A DNA stretch of 14,012 bases, taken from positions 1 to 14,012 of the forward strand of contig CBFFRP010000098.1 in assembly GCA_965644295.1 (NCBI GenBank). Direction: 5' to 3'. The position numbers and the translations under genes are program-made. Positions 1 to 14,012 of the stretch are shown piece after piece (positions within the stretch are counted from its first letter, which is position 1; each line of letters begins with the position of its first letter). The notes below the pieces were generated by a model. That model was not told the origin of the DNA. It ran no database searches and saw nothing but the letters and a program-made list of their open reading frames with translations. Source of the stretch: Paraphysomonas bandaiensis. Lineage: Eukaryota > Protista > Chrysophyceae.

Positions 1-352
1 ATGAGTGGGCGAAAATTATCTGCGGTGTTGAGTTCTGCAATATGATATGATATAATATATTGAAGTGAGTTAATAGTGTGCAATAGATGAAGTCAACTCA
101 TAGGTGTAACGGGTGATTATAGGTGCAAAGGAATTACATTCAGTTACTGATGTCTGACTATACTAGATATAGAACTGACTGATGAACATAGGATAAACAG
201 ATGTTTTATCAGATGTTACACGAATATGTAGTGAAGTGTTCAGAGTAATAGCTATAATTATTTCTTATTTGAAAGTGCACTGTGTTCAACACAGTAAGTT
301 AAGGTTTAAGTGTAGAGCAAAGTTAACTTCAGTGAAATGTCCAATTCTAAAA

Positions 353-446
353 TGCGGACTATGCAGAATGCGGCTCACATTAGTTTCCCAGAGAAATGTA
401 TCTCAGAACACCACGAAAAGGTGCGAGCCCGACATTGTTGAGGGCA
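353..446 (-). pseudogene. Remnant of an unknown coding family, paralogous to 6155-6261
   Basis: The reverse complement aligns with 6155-6261. The copies translate as ALNNVGLAPFRGVL and ALNKVGLAHFRGVL, with three synonymous third-position differences. Confidence 0.55.
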
Positions 447-749
447 TAAAGCATAAAGTACATTGCCAACATAATTTAGCGCTCTTGTAGCCACCACTGA
501 TAAACACCTGTGCCTTGAATCATCACATTTCTGTTTTACAGTTATATACCTATACAGTATGTTGACTGCGTATTAGTTTCGTTTTTACATGTATTTAACG
601 AATTATACACTTCTATCTTAGGGGAATATACATATTTCAACTCCCCCACTTATTCTGTAGAAATGATTATCGCTATAATACTGCAGCTCTATTTTTTTCT
701 TCTAAAACTAGCCATATAGGATAAGTGAATATGAAAACTTATTAAAGAT

Positions 750-1350
750 ACTGTGTACTCCAAACTCGCTGTAGGCGGTACTATTGATTTTATTCCACTT
801 CATTGGATATATACTCCTCTTCCAGTAGTTTGCTATCGTTCCAGCATGAGAGAACACAATGTACCCTACAGTATGGCACCAGCCCATCCAGAATCATTAA
901 CACATAGATCAACCTACTCCACTTTATACACTGCTATCCACTCTAGTATTTCAATAGTTGAATTGCTAACCTACAAGATGCGTACGTAGGCTTACTACAC
1001 TATCTCGTCAGCAATCCGACAGCATAGGCGAGGTATGGTTGCGTATGTAGTACTAAATACAAAATAATGATGCTATGGTATGAAATAAATGTTGATACCC
1101 ACTGTTCCTGTTCTGATGTAAGCTCCCGTTCTGCAGCTAATAGTTCCTGCGTATTTGGTGCTAATCTCTTGTTCTTCCTACTATTATGTCCAATGATTGG
1201 ATGAAATTTCCGAAATATTTTCTCCGCATAATATTTTGTGTGAGATCGTTTTCGAACCAATTCGCAGTAAGCCTTCATCTATTGGTAGGTACGTATAACA
1301 TATAGTCGTCTTCATCCCTAGATATAACAAAACGCAGAGCTCATGTCAAG
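750..1350 (-). mobile_element. Decayed Ty1/copia LTR retrotransposon remnant (RT C-terminal part and start of RNase H)
   Basis: The minus-strand ORF 1000..1278 contains YYAEKIFRKF and YHSII-ILYLVLHTQPYLAYAVGLLTR, matching the copia RT consensus Y.EKIL.KF and YRS.VG.L.YL...TRPDIAYAVG.LSR. Past the stop it reads CSKPTYASCRLAIQLLKY, then in shifted frames NDSGWAG (cf. SDADWAG) and GYIVFSHAGTIA (cf. GYVF...GGPISW). There are several stops and frameshifts, and the ends are approximate. Confidence 0.8.
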
Positions 1351-1743
1351 TTGATGAACGCAATAATATATTATAATATCAATCACTACACTCTAATCCT
1401 TTTACTACAGAGATGCAAATGTAGTTGGCGCCACCTCTTGCTTCTCCTCTAGCCTTATATTTTTGTCTATATATTCAAGTTTCATGAACATACATATCTT
1501 TCCAACGAATAAGTTTGACCCCAAATGGTCGACGAACAATTATCTTGAATGCTTCACTTCTCTTCGTCGCGTTTGGCCTTCATCTAGTCGTGTGTCTATT
1601 TAAGGAGAGTAATCCGTGTCCTGAGAACTATTTGGTTTTTAGGGATGTTCAACCTTGCAGTACCTTCACAAAACTCCTCTATAGTTTACATTGGCGTCTA
1701 TATAATTGCCCCATTCTGAGCGCGTACTTAGGTAGATTCGGAT

Positions 1744-1817
1744 GGGGGTCGGGTGGGTACCTAACTAATACTTGATTTAAGTCCCATACGTTATTTGCTA
1801 GCTACCTACTGATCCCA
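1744..1817. repeat. Small imperfect inverted repeat (arms about 27 bp)
   Basis: tgggggtcgggtgggtacctaactaata resembles the reverse complement of the right arm, tgggatcagtaggtagctagcaaata. Confidence 0.45.
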
Positions 1818-2567
1818 ACTAGCTACATCATTATCACATGGTATTCAGCGCTGAATATGCAGTGAGACCCCGGGTGGGGTAGTGCTGAACTAAGCAATGT
1901 GTACATAGATAGAGGTGAGCAATCGCAGCAGCACTCAGCCGCACCCACTAGGGTATTGCTAACCCGAGGTATTTACTCCGGGTGCAGCCACTATATGTGA
2001 ATAATAAGGAAATGTAAGAAAGAAGAAAGGAAAATAAGAAGAGGAATGTGCTTGTTAATAGCCTTACAATAGCTCAGGCACCCCCAAGCTCTTATAATTG
2101 GACACCTCCAACTACGTGTTAAGGTGTAAGGCACTCTAACAAAAACTGAACAGCAAGCAGAACACAAAATAACTCACAAAGAACCACTCATGTTCTACAA
2201 GCTATCTAGAAACACACAATAACATCTAGAACAATATTCTACAAAAGATTGTACAAGATTTGGTTGATTATGTGGACATATCAGTTTTCTGGAACACTCC
2301 CGTAGAATGCTATGAAGACCAACTCCAACCAACAGAGTCTCCAGCACACCAAAATGAGAATATTGTCCAATCATATGCTTGTACTCGACAATATACCGTC
2401 ACTGTACTATAGACCATACACAGATATACAACAGCACAATACTGTATACTCAGAATCATATACAGCATCATACAATCGTATATACAGAGGAGTACAAGGT
2501 CTCATACATCCCGCATACCAGAGTAGCATCCAGGAGTATACAGCAAATACAGTAAATACGGTAAATA

Positions 2568-2747
2568 CGGCATACGACAAAAACAACAGTTGAGAAGAGA
2601 CTGAAGATGATGATGCTCGTAACACTCATTGCAGATACATGCCAACGCTCCATAACCAGTAAGAGATGAATGATGACACTTGGCACACTAGTCAAGTCCA
2701 TAATGACAGACGTCTGACGCAAGCCACGGCTCCAAACATCATGAACA
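2568..2747 (-). pseudogene. Degenerate RING-finger-like coding fragment
   Basis: A minus frame not listed in the ORF track reads CS*CLEPWLASDVCHYGLD*CAKCHHSSLTGYGALACICNECYEHHHLQSLLNCCFCRMP. This gives CxxC...CxH...CxxC...CxxCR spacing with two in-frame stops. Confidence 0.45.
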
Positions 2748-3660
2748 CGAGAAGTTAGAGTCCACTGCGCTCCACAGGAATATGAAGACCACACAGAGAG
2801 TACTAATGGCCTCATGACAAGATGAGTGGACCCTCAGGTGATACAATGTGTACATATACCATACATACGTCATATTCATGTCATGTATACATGCAGATCG
2901 TGCTTATGACAAGACTTGGATCTTATACAAGCACGTGTACACCATACCCTATAGTATGCAAGTGATAAGAGTGTGATAATGTATATAGATGGTGACACAC
3001 ATACATATAGAGATATTGGAAGGTATAGATGAACATGTATACACTACATTGATATCTAATTCTTTCTATCTGCAGCTAGAGAAGAATTAACACCAACACA
3101 GCATAGAGTGTTATATGTGTACAGTGTGATAATGGATAAGGTGCATAATGTATGTCATATGTGTATAGTGTGAGTGATGTTGGTGATATAGTAATAAGTG
3201 TGAGTGCATACAATGCAATATCAATACAATGATGACATGCAGTGCAAGGCATAGTGTTGTGTACATGCAAGCATACATATAATAATATACACAATATGTA
3301 TCACAAGCAAGAGGTCTCACTCTTACTAGCGTAGCCCATATAAGTATCCAACCATAGCCATAGTACTCACCAGTAGATAGACATCCAAATCTCACTCACA
3401 GGAGTATAGTTGAACGCCACAGCGTTACAAGGGGCCGCACGCAGTAATTAGTTACGCTGTCAATATGGGGCAATAATACTTCTACATTGTTACGTTGGAG
3501 GTATTTTGGCTAACCTCCTCCCCGGAGTGTTGCTGTCGTCTTTGTAGCTCCAGTAGAAACTATCCGATCTTTACTATATTAGTATAATATAAAACAACAT
3601 CATCAGGTACTGTTGTAGGTACTCCTCCTAGCTGCATAATTCTTTAACCAATCATATAGC

Positions 3661-3923
3661 TAAGTGAATTGATCTACCTATTGGGAGCTTTAGGTTGCAA
3701 AATACTTGGGAGCTTGTATTTTTGCTGTGATAAGTTTAGATAGTCATTCTGTTCTATGAACAACTTGGTTTTTAACGCCTAAGATCACTGAAAAGAGAGC
3801 GTGTGTATGCTTGTTTATGGAAACAAGAAAACAGAATGACTATCTAAACTTATCACGAAATACAAGCTTCCAAGTATTTTGCATTCTTAAACCCCCAATA
3901 GGCGGATCGGATCAATTAACTTA
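3661..3923. mobile_element. Foldback/MITE-like element with imperfect terminal inverted repeats of about 93 bp
   Basis: The left arm 3661-3753 is the reverse complement of the right arm 3830-3923, including a perfect core gtgataagtttagatagtcattctgtt / aacagaatgactatctaaacttatcac. Weaker pairing extends to about 3646/3941. No coding capacity. Confidence 0.75.
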
Positions 3924-5727
3924 CCGATATATCGATTAGTTCGAGATAAAGAGTAAGAAGAAGGCAAGACAGACACCCCCCTCTACCATATCGGCATCCG
4001 TTGTATATCAATATACTTCTTGCTCACTGCGTTTGCTTTGAGTGATTAATAACGAGAATGGTTGTACCTCTGTGCCTTGGGGCGACACACAAAGTAGTTC
4101 TCGTAGTAGCGGAGTATCGTACAGAAATGCGACTGGGTGCATTGTGTATGAAGCGAGAGGACCACGTACTGTCATCCATGTTATAGGCTACAGTTTCGAC
4201 ATCATCTATATCAAAAGTGACTATCAAGCGATGTATACCTGGATACAAGAACTGCTGTGGCTTCGAGGGTGTTGGTCGAGCGAGGATTACGGTAAGCGAA
4301 CCCACAATACATGGACAGTCAAAGTACGTGCAGCATGACACTTACTCCTAATACCATAATTGAAATTAAATATCATTGAAATAGCAGAGCACGTAAATCC
4401 AAGTGGTACGTTCAAAAGTGCAACACTGCATTATGTTAGAACCGATGATCATACTGTGGACACCTTTGCCAAATTATTGCGTGGTGTTATATACGAGAAG
4501 CATAAAAATGTGTCAACGTGAGGATTAGAAAAACTCTAGGGTAGTCATGAGAGAAAACTCAATTTAACGACACATAAGATTGTGAAGAGTTGACGATGGT
4601 GAAGCTAACTGCAATGCTGGAGTCATACGGTTACCAGTTTGTCCTATTCCGTTTTCGTGGTTGCGTATCTGTCAGTTATATCTTGTGGTATGAAGGATCT
4701 GTCTACAACTTTGAATTGGGAGAGTGTGTTGAGTTTTACTAACTTGTAAAGCAATTAAAAGCTGTAAATTATATCTCTTAAGAATTCAGTTTTTAAAAAC
4801 AGTATTATATAAATTTAATGAATTGATATATATTAGGTTAGACAAATGGATATATAGAAATGGCTGTATAAAATCGTGTCTACTTAAGATAGTAAAATAT
4901 TGGTTAGTAACAGTTACATTATTAATACAATGAATGATGAGAAATGATTATCACAAATTTTATTTTATTGAAGGTAGATTGTATTTTAAGTTCAGTTACT
5001 CACTTCTAGTTTTCAACGTCAAATTCTGTTACAGTGCCTAGTGTTTTTATCACAGATAACATATTAGTTAATAGAGACTATTTGAGAGCTGTGTGATTTC
5101 AGTTTCTTACTTCTATGAGTAAAAATTACAAATATTATTATTATTCTAGTGGCGTATTATTTGCTCCATTCTGAGCGTTTCTACTATTAATTAAAAATTA
5201 AAACTAGCATGGTTTACAGCCATGCTCTCCACGACATGACGCTCGTCAAATTCTACTGGCCGAGTACTTCAAGCTATTTTATAATCATTAGGTTGCATCT
5301 ATTGACTAGTTAAAGTTAATCAAACTAGATAGATTATGTTATTAGAATTGTATACACAATTGTGTTGTCAAGTAAAACTCATCAACAACATGATATAATT
5401 TGTTCATGTCATCTACTGATCAACTTCCGTATCTTGTACAGTCGTGGTATAATACTTCAGTTTCACATATATAGCTATATAGTATGTTTGACTACGTATT
5501 ACAGTTTCTCACATTGTATTCACCGTATTCCATAGAACTATCTTAGAGAGACATACGTATTCCAATACTAACGTGCGTATTCCAACAGCATCTTCATTTA
5601 TGTGTTAAAATATAACTGCGCGGGCTTGCTCATCATTTCTATAAATATATACATATACAAAGATGTGGCGTTTTATTCAAATGGATTTATTACTGGTTCA
5701 GCAATATGGGGAAGTAGAGTATTTATC

Positions 5728-5862
5728 TTAATGGCCTAAAGCACTCAACACAGGGGCAACAGCAGAGAGATCAGCAGCAGCCTCAGCCTTTGCCTTAAGA
5801 GCGGCCCTGGCCTTCTTCTCGGCGTAGTAAGCCTGCTCCTTGGCTTTTCTCTGAGCCTCAAT
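5728..5862 (-). pseudogene. RPL13A: Orphan 3' fragment of 60S ribosomal protein L13a (uL13)
   Basis: A GC-rich island whose minus frame reads IEAQRKAKEQAYYAEKKARAALKAKAEAAADLSAVAPVLSALGH*, matching the eukaryotic uL13 C-terminal helix (LE..RK.K...YY..KK). AATAAA motifs follow in the putative 3' UTR. No upstream part of uL13 is recognisable in the window. Confidence 0.8.
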
Positions 5863-5960
5863 TGATACAATTGAAATTATAACATTACTAACAGAAGTTG
5901 CCATTATTTGCTAAGGTTTTCTGTGGTTCTCAATTGATGCGATTGAAATTATAACATTAC
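5857..5960 (+). repeat. 32-bp direct repeat pair at the breakpoint of the RPL13A fragment
   Basis: ctcaattgatacaattgaaattataacattac (5857-5888) and ctcaattgatgcgattgaaattataacattac (5929-5960). Confidence 0.8.
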
Positions 5961-6154
5961 ACGATAAAGAACCTAAGTTGTATTCGGTGTGCTCAACACC
6001 AATCATTTACTTCTATAATGTACGAACCACACTCTCAGTAGTCGTACCCTGTATAGTCACTATCTTATACTTCAGTTTCATACTACAATATAATATAATA
6101 TATTAATTACATACATATAGATATAACTTTTGATCCTTGCATCTCACATAATAC

Positions 6155-6261
6155 TGCCCTCAACAAAGTTGGACTTGCACATTTTCGTGGTGTTCTGGAG
6201 GATATAAGTACCGGAGAGATTCTCTCTGGGAAACTAACATGAGTCGCAAACATAGTCAGCA
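6155..6261 (+). pseudogene. Remnant of an unknown coding family, paralogous to 353-446
   Basis: Reads ALNKVGLAHFRGVLEDISTGEILSGKLT*VA and aligns with the reverse complement of 353-446. Confidence 0.55.
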
Positions 6262-6489
6262 GATAGATATTGTTCTGCCCACTCATAGCCGAATGCTTGT
6301 GTGGTACAAGGGACACCAATATAAGTGTCACTTGTGTAGACGTCTTTGGACCCTGACGAATAAACAGGCATCCGGAAATGGGCCCACCACCTCAACGGCA
6401 TCCGGGACAGGGCCCACCTGAAGGGTAACCGGGGTATTGGGCTGCCTGCTGAAGTCAAGCATACGGGATGTTCACCTTAAGGACTCAGA

Positions 6490-6766
6490 ACGGAAGTGGT
6501 TGCACCTTGGTGCTTGCGGCAACGCACAAGCCGCTTCTGTAGGACAATAGCGTTTGTATTAATTAGTTACGGGTGGAGGTCTCACTAGGTTGACTAGCAT
6601 TCATTCATCTACTAGCTACTAAACTACGGAAGTGGTCGCACCTTGGTGCTTGCGGCGACGCACAAGCAGATTCTGTAGCGTTAAATAGTAGGATAAAAGA
6701 GTTTGTATTGATTAAGTTACGGGTAGAGGTCTAAATAGCATGTCTAGCATTCCTCTAGCCACTAAA
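6490..6766 (+). repeat. Diverged tandem repeat, 2 x about 136 bp, each unit starting with a conserved branched hairpin
   Basis: Units start at 6490 and 6626 with acggaagtggtYgcaccttggtgcttgcggcRacgcacaagc...ttctgtag...gtttgtatt...agttacgggtRgaggtct...ctagcattc...ctagcYactaaa. Confidence 0.85.
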
Positions 6767-7044
6767 TTGGTGCAGGTTTTCAACGACTATTGCTAGAAAA
6801 TAAGACATTCAATATATATATACATATTACTGCACTCAATTGCAAGCATATAGAATCTTCAGATCTCAACACTTTCAATTGCTCGAATATATAGCAGAAC
6901 TCAACAGACCGCTATAGGGGTATACTGGTTTACTTTGCTCACTAACTAAACCGATGTTGCTACATAGCACTTATAACTAGACTTTCAATATATATATAAG
7001 ATATTAATTTATTATGATGCATCTCATACGCGATACTGGTTCGG

Positions 7045-9303
7045 TTAAACTTCTGAACTTATTTTCAAACTTTCACCAAAACTAAAGGGCATATCCTCGT
7101 CACTATTATCGCTATCCTCATCGTCGCCATCGCCATCATGATCATTGCCATTTCGTTCGTCTCCTGTGAAGAAGAACTCGTATTTCAAATCATCACTAAG
7201 TTGAACGCCATATGCATCTGAAAGTGCATTACGAAGTGATTCAAATGAAAAAAAAATTTGTGATTTGCACAGCTCTCTAATTTGTTTCGCACACCGACCT
7301 GCGGCTGATTGACTCATATACTCCCGAAGAACTGATGTTAAAATTGATAATCTACTAGAATGAGGGTCAACGACGGAGCAAGCACAAGGATGGAACGAAA
7401 GACAAGAATGAAAATGTTTCAGTTCTTTGCGTGACATTATCACACACCTATCATTAGGAAGTCGGACTTTTCTTTTTCCATAGGTTGCTAAAGCAGAAAA
7501 TATACAAAAAACGACTAACATACCATTCACCGATGGTTTTGGCATCAGTTTAATGTACTTCGAAAGAGCACCAGTTGTCAGCGGCTTTGCTTCACGTTTG
7601 CGCTGATCCAGAAATAAGACAGTTCTACCGCAAACCGTATGTAATACGAAATAAAGGTCCACGCCTTTGCCCCCTGAGCCATTTACAACAATATGGCACA
7701 TACTAGATTCGAACAAATTAACTGTTCGAAGAAGATTCTCACTTTCTGGAATAGAGTTCAAATTAGATTCTTCGGCCAACTCATTGTCCGCGAAAAACAC
7801 CTCCGCTGGTCTTAGTTGAACAACCACTGGACGAATAGTACTCAAATTTGTACGTGCGCCAGGAAAAAGATCGTTGATAGATATTGTCTCTCGACCAAGT
7901 ACTAGCAATGCATTTATACGAAGACAGTGGAAATGCGCACCAAACAACTCCCATTTGTACCAGGGCACATCGGATATTGACGCCAACTCATGAATAATTC
8001 TGAGAGAGTCCATGAAACGAATTCTGCATAGAGATTGCGAAATGTCATCTCTATGATCGCACGCTAAACATTGCAAAATTCCTACATACGGAATAGTTAC
8101 GTACTCTGAATCACCACAAGAGGTAAATTCTACTAGACCACGGTCAGCCATTTGTTGCCATGTTGGTTTTGACACTTCGGGACTTCGTACGCTATGGCTT
8201 ACTAATGAGATTCCAGGCGAATCTGCGGGGGAAACAGAGGTCCTACTCACACAATAGGCTACCAGGGTGAGAAGAGAATTACCATCTAACAAAAGTCTCC
8301 ATTGATTAGAATGTTCGTTGGAGATATCATTGCGAATCTGTTTAATCCTATTGGCTGTGGGAAACTTGTCAAGCAGATGACACTCATTTTGAATTCTCCG
8401 ACTAAAATTTACAACACTTCTTGGAATATTACCTAGTGTGAATAAGCATTGCTGAAACACTTCACTGCGAATGGTTTCAGGATATATGTTCGACGCGATG
8501 CCTGCGTAGTTGCGCTGAAATGGGATATTTATCTTGGTACATAAATCTCGAGAAGATGAAGTACTACTAATTCGCTCCCATTCAGTACCAGCGAACATGG
8601 TATACAAGTGAACATTATGATTTTTGTTTAAATAAAGAGTTGCCTCAAAGAGAAGTGTCATCAAGCGGTCTAACTTATCTATTCCGTCTTCTTCAAGTCC
8701 TGTAATACTCTGAAATTCGTCAATGCCAAGAAAAAAAGAAATCGGATTACTTTCATCAAATGTATCTCTTTTGGAGCTCAACACTGCAAGTATTGCCTCC
8801 GAGATAGTGAGTCCATCGTAAATATTAGAATTTTCTAGAAGATTCATGTGCTGTCGAAACTCGGAGCCGTCAAAAAAGTGGCGTTGTAGAATCCTCCATG
8901 CAAAAGTTTTTTCAATAGCACAGACATTATCAACAGAACACAATCCATGACCATTAAAATATAAAACTAATAAACCAGTGCGGTTAGTTGATGATATTCC
9001 CATCATATCAAACATAGATAACCATTCTTCAAGTAGTCTGGTCTTTCCAACCCCAGATATACCCACACAAACAGGATGTTTATAATCTGTTCGATTAGTT
9101 GAATTATTAGAAAAACTTTTTTGACGAAGTTTCCATATTTCAGTAATTCTTTTAAGGATATCATAACGTCCATATAGAGGTATCTGACGATCCTCATTAC
9201 TGTGACAATATATAAATGGATTGCTCTCAATTCCACCTAATTGAAAGATTTCATTCATCAGATTTGTATGATAAGATTTTATTTCTTGTATTTGATATGT
9301 CAT
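7045..9303 (-). CDS. Crinkler (CR)-type effector/toxin: P-loop NTPase + PD-(D/E)xK restriction-endonuclease-fold domain + C-terminal helix-hairpin-helix, acidic tail
   Basis: Intact, intronless 752-aa ORF. Walker A GISGVGKT (near 9063), Walker B FFLGIDEFQ (near 8720), MFAGT and LGNIPR. Then WYKWELFGAHFHCLR, VVNGSGGKGVD and LFLDQRK (QxK-type REase motifs), followed by a ComEA-like HhH (VDPHSS...AKQIRELCKSQIFFSFESL). This NTPase+REase+HhH order is typical of CRN-family proteins. Confidence 0.8.
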   Translation of the reverse strand: MTYQIQEIKSYHTNLMNEIFQLGGIESNPFIYCHSNEDRQIPLYGRYDILKRITEIWKLRQKSFSNNSTNRTDYKHPVCVGISGVGKTRLLEEWLSMFDMMGISSTNRTGLLVLYFNGHGLCSVDNVCAIEKTFAWRILQRHFFDGSEFRQHMNLLENSNIYDGLTISEAILAVLSSKRDTFDESNPISFFLGIDEFQSITGLEEDGIDKLDRLMTLLFEATLYLNKNHNVHLYTMFAGTEWERISSTSSSRDLCTKINIPFQRNYAGIASNIYPETIRSEVFQQCLFTLGNIPRSVVNFSRRIQNECHLLDKFPTANRIKQIRNDISNEHSNQWRLLLDGNSLLTLVAYCVSRTSVSPADSPGISLVSHSVRSPEVSKPTWQQMADRGLVEFTSCGDSEYVTIPYVGILQCLACDHRDDISQSLCRIRFMDSLRIIHELASISDVPWYKWELFGAHFHCLRINALLVLGRETISINDLFPGARTNLSTIRPVVVQLRPAEVFFADNELAEESNLNSIPESENLLRTVNLFESSMCHIVVNGSGGKGVDLYFVLHTVCGRTVLFLDQRKREAKPLTTGALSKYIKLMPKPSVNGMLVVFCIFSALATYGKRKVRLPNDRCVIMSRKELKHFHSCLSFHPCACSVVDPHSSRLSILTSVLREYMSQSAAGRCAKQIRELCKSQIFFSFESLRNALSDAYGVQLSDDLKYEFFFTGDERNGNDHDGDGDDEDSDNSDEDMPFSFGESLKISSEV

Positions 9304-9347
9304 TTTAATTGAGGTTTATATTATTCTACTGTATGTTTAATGATACT

Positions 9348-9631
9348 CATCTCTACTGGATTATTAAGGCAGATATCTAGATATGTACACAGTACTATAA
9401 CCCTAACCCTAATAGTACGACGTTCCTACGGGAAGTGGTTGGTGTGCAAATCGATTTTACGGTCATTGTTTTTTTCATTATTTTTTAAGTGAAAAGTGGT
9501 TTTTTACGAAAAAAAACGACCAAAAATTATTGATGAACTAAATCAGTGCCACCAAGCAAAATCGATTTGCACAACCACTTCCAGTACTGTACATATCTAG
9601 ATATGTGCCTGTTAATCAGCCAGTAGAGATG
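9348..9631. mobile_element. Foldback/MITE-like element with TIRs of about 74 bp; the left arm is interrupted by a telomere-repeat-containing insert
   Basis: The reverse complement of 9558-9631 (catctctactggctgattaacaggcacatatctagatatgtacagtactggaagtggttgtgcaaatcgatttt) matches 9348-9458 apart from an insert of about 34 bp (9397-9430). The termini are CA...TG, and CT flanks both sides (possible 2-bp TSD). Confidence 0.75.
9398..9412 (+). repeat. Short telomeric repeat TAACCCTAACCCTAA (TTAGGG type)
   Basis: 2.5 units closed by a 6-bp stem, gtacta (9392-9397) / tagtac (9413-9418). Confidence 0.6.
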
Positions 9632-9726
9632 CTGTGACAACGTCCCGGAATGCTGTGACACCAGTATGGTGCAGTTTGAATATATATATATTTGCCGGAC
9701 ATGTCAAACGTGTAGTTGACAATTGG

Positions 9727-10116
9727 ATGATCTCAAACGAATCGTTTTCACGCGACTGTGAACTTCGTTCGTCCAAAATTCAGTATACGCGGTCGGCTTA
9801 TTTCAACAAGTGGTTGATGCGTATTCTCGGTACAAATATTCACTGTACACATAAACAACAAAACCTTCGAGGACTCAACCGATTCGATCTATACTTTTGT
9901 GCACATCCCAAACATAGGGATTGGTTGTCCTACAACGAGATAGGAATGGTGATTGATCGATTCAATTTGATCGACCGTGTATTCACACATAACAAACCAC
10001 AGCGACGGAAAAACTTCTTTACGTATAGTGTCGTATTACAGTGTATAGTGGATGATTTGAATCTGATGGCGAAGATCCCTTTTCCAATACACACTCTCGA
10101 TTTATCCAATAAATGA
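9727..10116 (+). CDS. Compact VLTF3-like (poxvirus A2 family) viral late transcription factor; possibly truncated by a TGA (the frame stays open to TAG at 10174-10176)
   Basis: YTRSAYFNKWL (cf. YKR.NHFNEWL), LSYNEIGMVIDRFNLIDRVF (cf. LS.E.E..L...F..IQ.PF) and RRKNFFTYSVVLQCIVDDLNL (cf. RKNFLSYSYVLYK...LL). The first ATG is at 9727; the ORF track start at 9634 is a non-ATG codon next to the foldback element. Confidence 0.75.
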   Translation: MISNESFSRDCELRSSKIQYTRSAYFNKWLMRILGTNIHCTHKQQNLRGLNRFDLYFCAHPKHRDWLSYNEIGMVIDRFNLIDRVFTHNKPQRRKNFFTYSVVLQCIVDDLNLMAKIPFPIHTLDLSNK

Positions 10117-10187
10117 ACCCATGCAAACCAGGTCGCTTTAATTACAGCGATATTAAATGGGAAAATCCCTGATTAGTCATGGGTTTT

Positions 10188-10354
10188 TCATTGGTTTTTC
10201 TTGGTAAGATTGGATGCCACTTTAATTCCGATTGCGTGTTGCTTCTTGGACACCACCTTACCGTGCTTGTTTTTCATTAAATTTGATTTTTAAGACCACC
10301 CGCCGTCCTATCTGCGGTTCCGTGCCAAACTTGTAATTTTGTTCCAACAGTCAT
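10188..10354 (-). pseudogene. DVNP: DVNP (dinoflagellate/viral nucleoprotein), 55 aa once a 1-nt homopolymer deletion is repaired
   Basis: From the ATG at 10354: MTVGTKLQVWHGTADRTAGGLK. Adding one base to the T5 run at 10287-10291 continues it as KSNLMKNKHGKVVSKKQHAIGIKVASNLTKKNQ*. This matches the viral DVNP signature GS..QVWHG.A..T.GGL.K.DL.KNK.G.IVSKK.H. Absent from the ORF track. Confidence 0.9.
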
Positions 10355-10432
10355 TTTATTATATTTTTACAATAAGTCAAGTAAAAATGAGCTTACTCGT
10401 ATATATTATTTGCATATTATATAGTTTATCAA

Positions 10433-10699
10433 ATGACAACAACTATGTCCGATTCTATCAAGAAAAAGCGGCGGGAGTACATGCGGCGATACCATGCAAA
10501 GTACCCTGATCGACTCAAGGTGATACAGCGGGAGTCTAATCGGAAATATAACGAAAAACAGAAAGCTCTATTGGGTGTCGAAAAGTTTAATGAAAATCGC
10601 CGTAGATGGATGAGAAACCATTATGCTCGAAGGAAAAAGGAGATTGCAGAGTTTCGAGAATACAAAAAAACTATGTTGCGTAAAAAAACTGACGATTGA
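10433..10699 (+). CDS. Small Lys/Arg-rich helical protein, putative DNA-binding protein of the viral element
   Basis: 88 aa with an ATG start, divergent from DVNP across a 78-bp AT-rich spacer. Internal repeat RREYMRRYHAK / RRRWMRNHYAR, a pattern common in small proteins of eukaryotic DNA viruses and transposons. Confidence 0.6.
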   Translation: MTTTMSDSIKKKRREYMRRYHAKYPDRLKVIQRESNRKYNEKQKALLGVEKFNENRRRWMRNHYARRKKEIAEFREYKKTMLRKKTDD

Positions 10700-10706
10700 T
10701 TTGTGC

Positions 10707-11009
10707 TAAATTTTATACTTTTTGTAAACAATTGTGGGTGATCCTCCTCCACCCATTTATATATTTTTCATAATTATATAAAAAAATGAATTTCATTTGA
10801 GAGCCATTTATTTCCATTCTCAAAAGTTGCAGTGCATGTTGGATGGGTATAAATTTTATACTTTTTGTAAACAATCGTGTGTGATCCTCCTCCACTCATT
10901 TATATATTTTTCATAATTATATAAAAAAATGAATTTCATTTGAGAGCCATTTATTTCCATTCTCAAAAGTTGCAATGCATGTTGGATGGGTATAAATTTT
11001 ATACTTTTG
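10707..11009 (+). repeat. 143-bp tandem repeat (two near-identical copies plus the start of a third), candidate replication origin or regulatory region
   Basis: Units start at 10707, 10850 and 10993 and differ by only a few substitutions. Unit junctions form the palindrome GTATAAA-T-TTTATAC, and each unit has a very AT-rich core. Confidence 0.9.
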
Positions 11010-11088
11010 ATAAAATCATTTGAGTTCCATTTTCATTTTTAATCACAACACACAACTGTTTGACCCCCCACCATCATTTCTTACAAAG

Positions 11089-14012
11089 ATGTCGTCCAGC
11101 AGCAATCAGAAACAGAAGTGTCCGCATTGTCAAAAAATGATTAAAGACGTTCGAGGTCATATTATGCGGCAGCACCCGGGTTTCACCGCAACGGTCAATT
11201 CTACTGAATTGCCATCAAATATTAAGACCACATCAAATCCATGGGAACTAGGTTACTTGCCATCCCCTCGTACGGACATCGGTAGTGATGAAACCATGTG
11301 GTCACCCCATAACCCATTTGGGTTAACTATGCCGAAAACTGTTCCATCAATTTACGTAGGCCGAGGAAAAATAAAAACATTTGAGATAACCGATCGTTCG
11401 TTATTGAGGGGTATCATTAATTTGAGTTCGAGCAACCAAGAGAAATCGTCGTCAAGCGAATATGTACGACAAGAGACAATTGCACAGCTTGCACAGCGAA
11501 TGTACGATCTCCAAGAAACGGATAATGAAAATCCCGAGCTCGGTCGTGTCAAAACTTCGTACAAACACGCCATACATGAATTTGGTCGAATCATTGAAAT
11601 GTTATCGGCAAGTTTGTCAACAGTAAAACGATCTTACCGACACACATTATGCCGGATAATCTATGTAGACTTCGATTTTGTTTGTTGTATGCCCACCATA
11701 ATGTTGGCATTTGCGGCGCGATACCAAATCAAATGTCCGAGATTGCGAGCATATTGTGAAAATCCCAAGAAACTACGTGTCGAAATCGCACGCCATCACT
11801 TTCCAGCTATGTGTGAAGAAAAAACTACAGTTGAAATATTGAAAATGTATAATGACACGGCAAAATCGCTTCCCATTCGTCTGGCGTTCGGGGGAACCTA
11901 TCGGCAATGGCGTGAAGATTTTGAAATTGATAAATCTATTCGTGAGATGTCATTTGTGAATGATCTTCAACGTGAATTGAATCAACTCATGACATTGATA
12001 TATAACAACAACCCTCATATTCGAAAGGCATATGCCGAGCTTCGTCCCGAAAAAACTAAGTCCCAATTGAAACGATCAATCAATTCTTTATTTTTTAGTA
12101 GCATTGAAAAGGTGGTACAAGAAGATGCGACGATGTTTCTTTATCACGCATATCCGACGATTGAACGTGGAAGTATTGTGCCATGCCAAGATGGAATGAT
12201 GCTCCGTGTCAATGATGTTCGCGACGATATGCTCCAACGGGTGAATGAATACCTGGAGCTAAAGTATGGATACGGGCTCACTCTGATTGATAAACCTTTT
12301 GACGAAGCCATGGACGACATTCCCCGAGATGCGAGTATCAATGCCGTACCTGCGCCGAATATGACTGAAGAATTGAAACGATATTTCGATGTCGACACTG
12401 GTGACATCAAAATCATAACTGAAGATTCAAAGTATCTTTCTCAAGAGGGTACTCCATTTGAGGACGACATTTTTGATGATTCGAAATACCTCATTCTTAG
12501 TTCATATATGGGTACTGGGAAATCAACTGCGATGCGGAGACTGATTGATCATATGTTTAGCGATGAATTAGAACTTGTATGGGAGAAGGAAAAACAGGTG
12601 TATCGACGAAGGAATGATGATAGCAACTATAAGTCGCGTGGTGTTTACTGCAATGAACCACCACGTAGGAGCATTTTACAAGTATCACCGAGGCGGTTGT
12701 TTACACATCATTGCGAATCTTGCAATCACTTTGATAGTTACCTCTCGATTGAACGTGGTCCCAACGATTGTGAAACATTTATTTGTCAAGTGGAATCGTT
12801 GCTAGCTAAAACGAGTAACATCACATACAAATGTATCCTTCTCGATGAAATTGAGGAAATCTTGGCTCAGTTTTCAAGTCCGACGATGAAACAACATATT
12901 GATACTTGGAATTTATTGGTAAATCATATGCAAGGGGCGGATAAAGTCATCATTGCGGATGCATATATCACCCAACGAACCATTTCATTTGTAAATTCGG
13001 TGGCGGGTTCGTTGAGTGGTGTCACCATGATCCGAAATACAACATTGCCAAGTAATCAAACGGCAATCATAGTAAAGGATGATATCATGAATGAAGTATT
13101 CCTTCATAACTTGAGTCAGGATAAACGGATATATGCCGTGTTTTCTACAAAAACTCGAATGAAATCGGTGAATTCTATGATAGCCAAACACTTCAAAGAT
13201 AAAAAAGTACTTGTTTACAAGGGGGGTCAAGGGCGCGAAATGAAAGAGTCCGTATTTAATATAAACACGACGTGGGCGGAAGTGGATATAGTTCTCACAA
13301 CCCCCGCTTTAACCGTGGGCAATAGCTATTCACCAGACGACAAATCCTTTTGGTTTGATTGCACGTTTGCGTTTAATTTTGATAGAAGTGCCTGCGTGCG
13401 AACTGCAAACCAAATGATGTGGCGGAACCGACACACCAAAGAGAACAAGATATATGTATCGTTCCAGGAAAGTAAACAAATTCGTTTCAAAGGTAGTAAG
13501 CCGGATGAGCTATTGCATGAGTTATTTGAGTCACGTCGCCACGCGGATGAAAAACAATCTAAAATACAATCTATTCGGCGGTACTGTGAAAAGTGTGCAA
13601 AAGAGGCGTACGATGCGGGGGACTATGTGACGGGCAATCAGTTTACCAGTGTTTTTATGTTTTCCGGAAGCGATGAATGCTCTAATGCACCAGTTGCCTT
13701 ATACGACAAACGCTCCTTTATACATATTACGAGACCACTTTGTCAAATATGACATATAGAGCCATGTATCACGAGTACCTTAAAAGGGCCGGTTATGCTA
13801 TTCGGCCATATGATGGGAAGGAACTGTGTAAACAGAAAACAGAAAAAGAAGAGAGCACTGCGTATTCTATGACACCTTCTGTGCGAAATTGTGATATTTA
13901 TTGCAAAATGATACAATTGCGGAATAAAGACAACGCGACGGGTTTCGAATTGATGCAGATCAAAAAATATCAATTTGATCAAAGTACGAGTAAATGTCGA
14001 GCCGCAGAGCAT
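11089..14012 (+). CDS. Viral replication protein: C2H2 zinc finger + PolA-family TVpol polymerase/primase + UL9-like (origin-binding) SF2 helicase; frameshifted near 13702, 3'-partial
   Basis: ATG at 11089. Zinc finger CPHCQKMIKDVRGHIMRQH. TVpol motifs: FGR...SLSTVKRSYRHTL, YVDFDFVCCMPTIM (motif A), AKSLPIRLAFGG (B), IVPCQDGMML (C). Helicase motifs: SYMGTGKS (near 12511), VSPRR, CQVESL, LLDEIEEILAQFSSPTM, IIADA, TTPALTVGNSY, QMMWRNR. A second frame is open from 13704 to the window end (RQTLLYTYYETTLSN...YLKRAGY...ATGFELMQIKKYQF). Confidence 0.85.

Follow-up and report, generated by a model that had tools for sequence, protein, structure and literature searches.

The analysed stretch of DNA (hereafter the window, 14,012 nt) combines a flank resembling host DNA with an insert of apparent viral origin that runs off the window (Table 1). 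The flank encodes an intact Crinkler-like NTPase of 752 aa, with relatives in marine eukaryote transcriptomes, oomycetes and fungi; its second-best homologue is from an MMETSP transcriptome (47 % identical). As the relatives of this gene are eukaryotic, we took the flank to be host DNA. A second, diverged copy of the NTPase gene is found in the same samples, with a 259-bp replacement at 8421–8681. The flank also holds a pair of 43-nt inverted arms (404–446 and 6155–6197), a degenerate tandem duplication at 6490–6764 (period ~136–150 bp), a short repeat of very high copy number at 6822–6873 (summed contig depth ~10,000–68,000 in three of four runs) and two MITE-like stretches with inverted repeats at their ends (3658–3921 and 9367–9610). 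The second of these directly precedes the VLTF3-like gene, where it may either indicate or mask the left end of the insert.

Within the insert, the VLTF3-like sequence is matched by tblastn in two frames. Its match to Pox_VLTF3 (E value 0.0018) is below the cut-off, as is that of an intact relative, P0167 (79 % identical to the pseudogene; E value 1.4e-4). The 88-aa basic ORF that follows probably belongs to the same viral insert, judging by its position. Contigs from poly(A) metatranscriptomes cover 9869–10127 and 10440–10695 and not the replicase gene, although such contigs cannot show the level or absence of a transcript. Rfam returned no match.

Table 1. Features of the window, with the evidence for each.
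Feature	Position	Strand	Remarks and evidence
Crinkler-like NTPase gene, eukaryotic	7045–9303	-	Atlas clusters 96–100 % Eukaryota; context
VLTF3-like pseudogene	9636–10173	+	Frameshift near N-terminal cysteine motif; premature stop near end
88-aa basic ORF	10433–10699	+	Weak phrog_3327, E value 0.0077
Tandem repeat	10707–11008		143-bp unit x2.1, 97 % alike, 27 % GC; immediately 5′ of replicase
Replicase ORF	11089–13752	+	887 aa counted from ATG; premature end due to frameshift
Zinc-finger-like motif, C-x2-C-x9-H-x4-H	11119–11175	+	Pattern; short, without family-wide presence
Minimal family-A (TVpol-type) polymerase domain, without exonuclease	11338–12345	+	Alignment, model, structure matches
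Polymerase motif A, YVDFDF	11662–11679	+	Sequence pattern
Polymerase motif B, K259 to FGG	11863–11895	+	LAFGG at 11881–11895
Polymerase motif C, PCQDGMM	12181–12201	+	Sequence pattern
UL9-like SF2 helicase core	12481–13440	+	Pfam, PHROG, motifs, family profile, conserved columns
Helicase Walker A, SYMGTGKST	12502–12528	+	
Helicase DEIEE	12838–12858	+	
Helicase motif V	13297–13326	+	
Helicase motif VI, QMMWRNR	13411–13431	+	
Out-of-frame continuation, start of family C-terminal domain	13689–14012	+	C-terminal profile; truncated by window end

The replicase ORF may start at a TTG at 11020 (910 aa) or at an ATG at 11089 (887 aa), with both versions ending at 13752; residues (K259, D368 etc.) are numbered from the ATG. 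The original prediction placed PolA motifs A, B and C in frame with a set of SF2 helicase motifs in a single chain, and both sets were found at the predicted positions within one ORF. Four contigs from other samples and studies (X5, X6, X10 and X11) span the polymerase–helicase junction, so the fusion is present in the DNA, and we rejected an assembly chimera as its source. The fusion of the two enzymes in one chain is real. The C2H2 finger predicted at the N-terminus held up in part: the Cys/His pattern is present, but its match to zf-Di19 (E value 0.024) is below the cut-off and a similar pattern occurs in only 1/81 relatives.

Neither Pfam nor PHROGs contains a model that matches the N-terminal half of the replicase, and a PDB sequence search with alignment A1 returned helicase relatives only and no polymerase match. 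The Atlas scored unnamed viral clusters 0.91, against only 0.80 for DNA_pol_A, which serves as a lead only. An AlphaFold model of the polymerase domain based on an 82-sequence alignment (pLDDT 92, pTM 0.89) was used in place of a single-sequence model (pLDDT 33), and every match listed for it by Foldseek in the PDB is a family-A polymerase. Structural alignment gave Z 17.5 to Pol theta (rmsd 3.8, 295 residues), 15.6 to T7 DNA polymerase and 15.5 to Klenow, and the nearest viral models are virophage replicases (TM 0.69–0.75; Zamilon 0.69, Qinghai Lake virophage 0.71). The modelled fold thus agrees with the PolA/TVpol fold originally proposed for this part of the protein.

TV-Pol was defined (Iyer 2008; PMC2579912, in the part available) as a minimal family-A fold with predicted primase and polymerase activity. 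The two palm aspartates and β-hairpin arginine of that family are conserved in the alignment as D194/D196, D368 and R167, the assignment of palm and hairpin residues to motifs following sequence pattern and not residue-level superposition. No nuclease is fused to the domain, as matches are confined to the polymerase domains of their targets and 83 residues precede the domain. The lysine of the RxxxK fingers motif (K259) occurs in 82/82 sequences, and the arginine four residues before it is absent here and in most of the rows shown. K259, D368 and G369 are invariant among the 82 sequences and G166, R167, R184, D194 and D196 are conserved in at least 96 % of them, while the window polymerase departs from the family at four well-conserved residues (E128Q, Y135A, N199C and Q337S). 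On the strength of the model and these residues, the N-terminal domain is by fold a family-A polymerase, with the features of TV-Pol except for the RxxxK arginine.

Among giant viruses, the model matched a 1,019-aa protein of Pyramimonas orientalis virus and a 1,054-aa protein of Catovirus (TM 0.71 and 0.72). The former carries the name 'replication origin-binding protein domain-containing' and, going by name and length, we infer that both proteins share the whole architecture. With these two BFVD matches (A0A7M3UP97 and A0A1V0S8M8), giant viruses may encode unannotated family-A polymerases. The fusion also serves as a warning that a DNA polymerase can go unnoticed in a giant-virus or virophage protein annotated as 'origin-binding protein'.

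The C-terminal enzyme is not the D5-like SF3 helicase of TVpol proteins in the narrow sense but an SF2 helicase, with a match to Pfam Herpes_ori_bp (PF02399) at aa 527–650 (E value 1.1e-11, 44 bits against a cut-off of 20) and to PHROG 4913 (E value 7.6e-16). It possesses motifs I to VI of UL9 type, as in the UL9-like SF2 family (PF02399, NCVOG0024), and, of the 28 columns with at least 80 % conservation among relatives, it retains 26. When 25 fusion proteins were combined into a profile, this matched HSV-1 UL9 (E value 4e-41), covering only UL9 residues 87–415; a second profile, from 44 AEP-type relatives, likewise ends, at residue 407. According to the available part of PMC13483431, the dimerisation and SAP DNA-binding parts of UL9 comprise residues 536–851, and neither family profile gave a sequence match to this C-terminal domain, most of the window's own C-terminal domain lying beyond the window. 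The helicase is therefore of the UL9-like SF2 type that had been predicted, with a likeness limited to the UL9 helicase core. Because the match is confined to this core, the 'origin-binding' label, and with it the predicted role of origin-binding initiator, is unsupported for the window protein.

It could still be argued that the fusion is also a sequence-specific origin-binding initiator, binding and melting an origin as a UL9-like dimer and so placing two polymerase domains, with the AT-rich 143-bp repeat upstream of the replicase as a possible origin. UL9 is the nearest solved relative of the helicase core, the family shares a conserved C-terminal domain of ~375 positions, the repeat lies just 5′ of the gene and the bacterial helicase Cch2 binds a specific site close to its own gene (PMC7581432, in the part available). 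We nevertheless consider such an initiator unlikely, given that the UL9 dimerisation/SAP domain found no sequence match and that the repeat copies are 97 % identical, which fits a recent local duplication.

The window copy of the gene is broken. A frameshift lies near 13,690–13,710, and the family C-terminal profile matches the other frame at 13689–13988 (E value 4.6e-15; profile positions 63–165 of 375, with ~210 positions falling beyond the window). A second copy in the same samples, which on these data may be either an allele or a paralogue, has a 1,324-bp deletion at 11566–12891 as well as smaller deletions. Among the 31 differences between the two copies listed by the tool, 7 are synonymous, where chance alone would give 21.4 % (p 0.83). 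Judged by family preference, the window copy has the better residue at 8 of 22 amino acid differences and the second copy at 11, with 3 ties. Further 2-nt insertions are present in other strains at 11897 and 12673, inside both domains. Given the frameshift, the neutral divergence from the second copy, the strain insertions and the broken VLTF3-like neighbour, the window copy is a decaying pseudogene and probably inactive. The original prediction of intact catalytic Asp residues and Walker motifs is thus correct for the residues, which are kept, but does not extend to an intact enzyme. Alternatively, the host may have retained the truncated 887-aa protein as a functional gene, since the catalytic aspartates and Walker motifs are kept, the frame is open across both enzymes and 887 open codons would be expected only 1–8 % of the time under neutral decay at 2–3.5 % per copy, although long ORFs are those that get noticed. 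With neutral divergence between the copies, strain-specific frameshifts within both domains and a deletion in the second copy, such domestication is highly improbable.

Haplotypes over 11142–13710 are near-identical, and 2–3-nt insertions outnumber substitutions, an odd mutation signature; contig X6 alone differs by 1 substitution against 7 gap letters across 1,547 nt. Contig depth over the insert is 35–42 against 65.5 for one flanking contig, which is a hint of hemizygosity only.

A search of 50 %-identity representatives returned 2,239 matches (E value <=0.001), the best 150 of which were listed, giving 152 proteins when other matches were included. In this set (the best 150 of 2,239 plus 2), 81 of the 152 proteins have the polymerase domain. 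An SF2 helicase is also present in 24 of these 81 (16 strong on the helicase profile and 8 of a more diverged subtype) and absent from 57, and since the query favours fusions, 24/81 cannot be read as a frequency. Of the 57, 21 were scanned with Pfam and 17 of these gave D5_N or DUF5906. IMG/VR loci fetched by polymerase motifs provided a second view: among 143 distinct PolA ORFs, 108 are linked to SF3 helicases and 4 to UL9-like helicases, with 31 unassigned or cut.

Two of the four IMG/VR fusion contigs (L027 and L094) encode a Sputnik-type major capsid protein, and GIY-YIG genes are present in L094 and L099. L099 is a whole contig of 15,586 bp with perfect terminal inverted repeats of 3,073 nt, in which the PolA–UL9 ORF (1,484 aa) lies at 8085–12536. 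No capsid or ATPase match was found among the 8 ORFs scanned in L099, possibly making it a capsid-less, transpoviron-like linear replicon, though the repeats may instead have arisen in assembly. A PolA–UL9 fusion (P0006) also occurs in a chrysophyte (Epipyxis) entry of EukProt, placing the architecture in another protist data set.

PolA–SF2 fusions are already in print, with 'two instances' mentioned in the available text on a set of 1,055 genomes (bioRxiv 10.64898/2026.10.13.758929). We found no paper in the accessible literature that names a fusion of PolA with a UL9-type helicase, a statement on which the supplements of two 2026 preprints may bear, and there is no PolA–UL9 fusion in the accessible parts of PMC3671162, PMC10120064, PMC4889955 and 10.1101/2022.12.02.518924. 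The high novelty first attributed to the fusion has therefore to be lowered, with at least 24 other 50 %-identity clusters containing it and PolA–SF2 proteins (not named UL9-type in the available text) mentioned in a preprint. As to frequency, the fusion is rare in IMG/VR (4/143) but recurs in those clusters. The PolA–UL9 pairing is thus rare but recurring and not unique to the window; the window gene is a fossil case of a thinly described architecture, to which our analysis adds the UL9 type, evidence for an AEP-to-PolA exchange, a capsid-less contig and a VLTF3 neighbour.

The evidence for this exchange comes from the relatives. Fusions of an AEP domain with a UL9-like helicase are described in the accessible text for mriyavirus SF2_hel, mimivirus R8, ASFV F1055L and NCVOG0024 (10.1101/2024.02.29.582850; PMC3493329). 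In our search (best 150 of 2,239 matches), 52/70 proteins that matched by the helicase only have a shared N-terminal domain, the other 18 being mostly fragments, and the profile of this domain matches human PrimPol (E value 7e-23) and poxvirus D5. A helicase tree was built from 24 PolA and 50 AEP rows, excluding fragments and unassigned rows (quick search, LG+G4, with long branches). The PolA/AEP label switches 8 times along it, and an AU test, run after a first tree had been seen, rejected the grouping of all PolA rows in one clade (p-AU 2.9e-5). One fusion, P0007, groups beside an AEP protein on that first tree (99 SH-aLRT). Its PolA domain is separated from the helicase by a PriCT-2-like segment (aa 389–519, E value 1.5e-19), found in 1/26 fusions, which is likely the scar of a PolA that replaced an AEP catalytic domain.

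In the PolA-domain tree (likewise a quick search), helicase type has to change 9 times, of which the strongly supported branches require only 1–2, and so the tree alone is no proof of multiple origins. The window polymerase groups with diverged-SF2 and SF3-linked proteins (92 SH-aLRT), while the nearest relative of its helicase is AEP-linked (P0015, 36 %), and the protein looks like a chimera of its own. Given the helicase type, the rejected single clade and the P0007 segment, PolA likely replaced AEP repeatedly on a UL9-like helicase, which supports a role of the PolA domain as a primase-polymerase. A TV-Pol that displaces prim-pol domains has a precedent in the available part of PMC2579912.

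We consider it probable that the window gene is a frameshifted gene, likely of a small integrated eukaryotic DNA virus, and that in its intact relatives a one-chain, UL9-type helicase unwinds DNA while PolA primes and extends. The helicase would unwind the duplex and travel 3′ to 5′ ahead of the polymerase, leading to strand-displacement synthesis. The PolA domain would prime and extend the new strand in place of the AEP primase-polymerase to which helicases of this type are normally joined, a job assigned to it because PolA and AEP replace each other at the same position, and the C-terminal helical domain may mediate oligomerisation or DNA loading. UL9 and D5-type SF3 helicases move 3′ to 5′, and this common direction would account for the ability of SF2 and SF3 partners to stand in for each other. 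Of the single-chain initiator-helicase-primase/polymerase originally proposed, the primase-polymerase role is thus likely in view of the AEP swap, but the initiator part, with origin binding, is unsupported.

A difficulty for priming comes from the CCPol–MP system, an A-family primase that cooperates with the 3′–5′ helicase Cch2 and that, as of PMC7581432 (in the part available), was the only relative of TV-Pol with demonstrated primase and polymerase activity. CCPol alone extends primers only and requires its MP subunit for priming (same source), which keeps alive a reading in which the PolA domain only extends primers. Priming would then be left to the host or a helper virus, to a distinct ssDNA-binding partner, or to 3′ ends that a recombinase or nuclease generates. 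The GIY-YIG genes of L094 and L099 are in line with such a division of labour, and the available text of one preprint suggests that PolA/AEP replicases might extend from tyrosine-recombinase intermediates (bioRxiv 10.64898/2026.10.13.758929). The repeated in-place exchange with AEP primases is, however, easier to explain if PolA primes, and we regard extension only as rather unlikely. The alternatives to our reading (origin binding, extension only and domestication) overlap in part. The exchange offers independent comparative support for the self-priming predicted since 2008 for virophage-type TVpol, and the intact PolA–UL9 relatives are ready proteins on which priming can be tested.

The virus that left the insert is less well defined. 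The window sequence occurs in cultured-organism runs under four labels and in marine metagenomes, from which we infer a marine protist host, and the replicase gene likely derives from a small DNA virus of eukaryotes that entered the genome of a marine microbial eukaryote. No capsid, penton, packaging ATPase or integrase gene was found in positions 1–11088 when compared with 3,205 ORFs of related loci; with no capsid, ATPase or integrase gene in the window, the virus group stays unfixed. No close viral relatives turned up in scans with the helicase, P0005 or P0167, and a phage collection gave two weak matches to the helicase only. Two methyltransferase-like ORFs returned by a metagenome scan share only a CPHCQKMIKD stretch and were discarded as false. 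As for the VLTF3-like gene, VLTF3 is called diagnostic of Nucleocytoviricota in the available text of 10.1101/2024.02.29.582850, and it occurs in ~30 % of two clusters of Zephyrviruses, which use TV-Pol and had no endogenous example in a June 2026 survey (10.64898/2026.06.19.733378, in the part available). A single-sequence search of low sensitivity with P0167 found no VLTF3-like ORF in 167 IMG/VR loci. In a more ambitious reading, PolA–UL9 fusions would form a class of their own, assembled on repeated occasions, of single-chain replicases that prime for themselves; these would drive virophages, certain giant-virus loci and linear replicons that lack a capsid and have long terminal inverted repeats (L099), and the window would be the remnant of an integrated, VLTF3-bearing small virus related to Nucleocytoviricota (Zephyrvirus- or mriyavirus-like) that used one; as a whole this combination is doubtful. 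If the remnant were of such a virus, a group without endogenous cases in that survey would thereby gain its first host. In any case, the window copy is a fossil and mainly a marker of past infection of a marine plankton host.

Several known systems resemble the fusion in part. The TVpol–SF3 primase-helicases of virophages and PLVs (Sputnik V13 type; PMC2579912, PMC3671162, as far as available) likewise place a minimal, exonuclease-free PolA N-terminal to a helicase, a likeness reflected in TM values of 0.69–0.71 to the Zamilon and Qinghai Lake virophage proteins, but the window helicase is a UL9-like SF2 enzyme and not an SF3 ring. The polisuvirus PolA–SF2 fusions (bioRxiv 10.64898/2026.10.13.758929), for which domain swapping is proposed in the available text, have the same domain classes in the same order. 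The main text of that preprint gives neither the SF2 type ('UL9' occurs 0 times) nor a sequence, and from the description only, they are likely of the same family. The AEP–SF2 proteins (mimivirus R8, ASFV F1055L and mriyavirus SF2_hel) share the helicase family and the C-terminal region, with PolA standing where their N-terminal AEP and PriCT-2 would be. HSV-1 UL9 (PMC13483431) is alike in its helicase core (E value 4e-41 over UL9 87–415), but UL9 itself is without a polymerase and its dimerisation/SAP domain is without a detected counterpart in the fusion family. Finally, SCCmec CCPol–MP with Cch2 (PMC7581432, in the part available) also sets an A-family polymerase for priming beside a 3′–5′ helicase; there, three separate bacterial proteins share the work and MP is needed to prime, whereas the family of the window protein combines polymerase and helicase in one chain.
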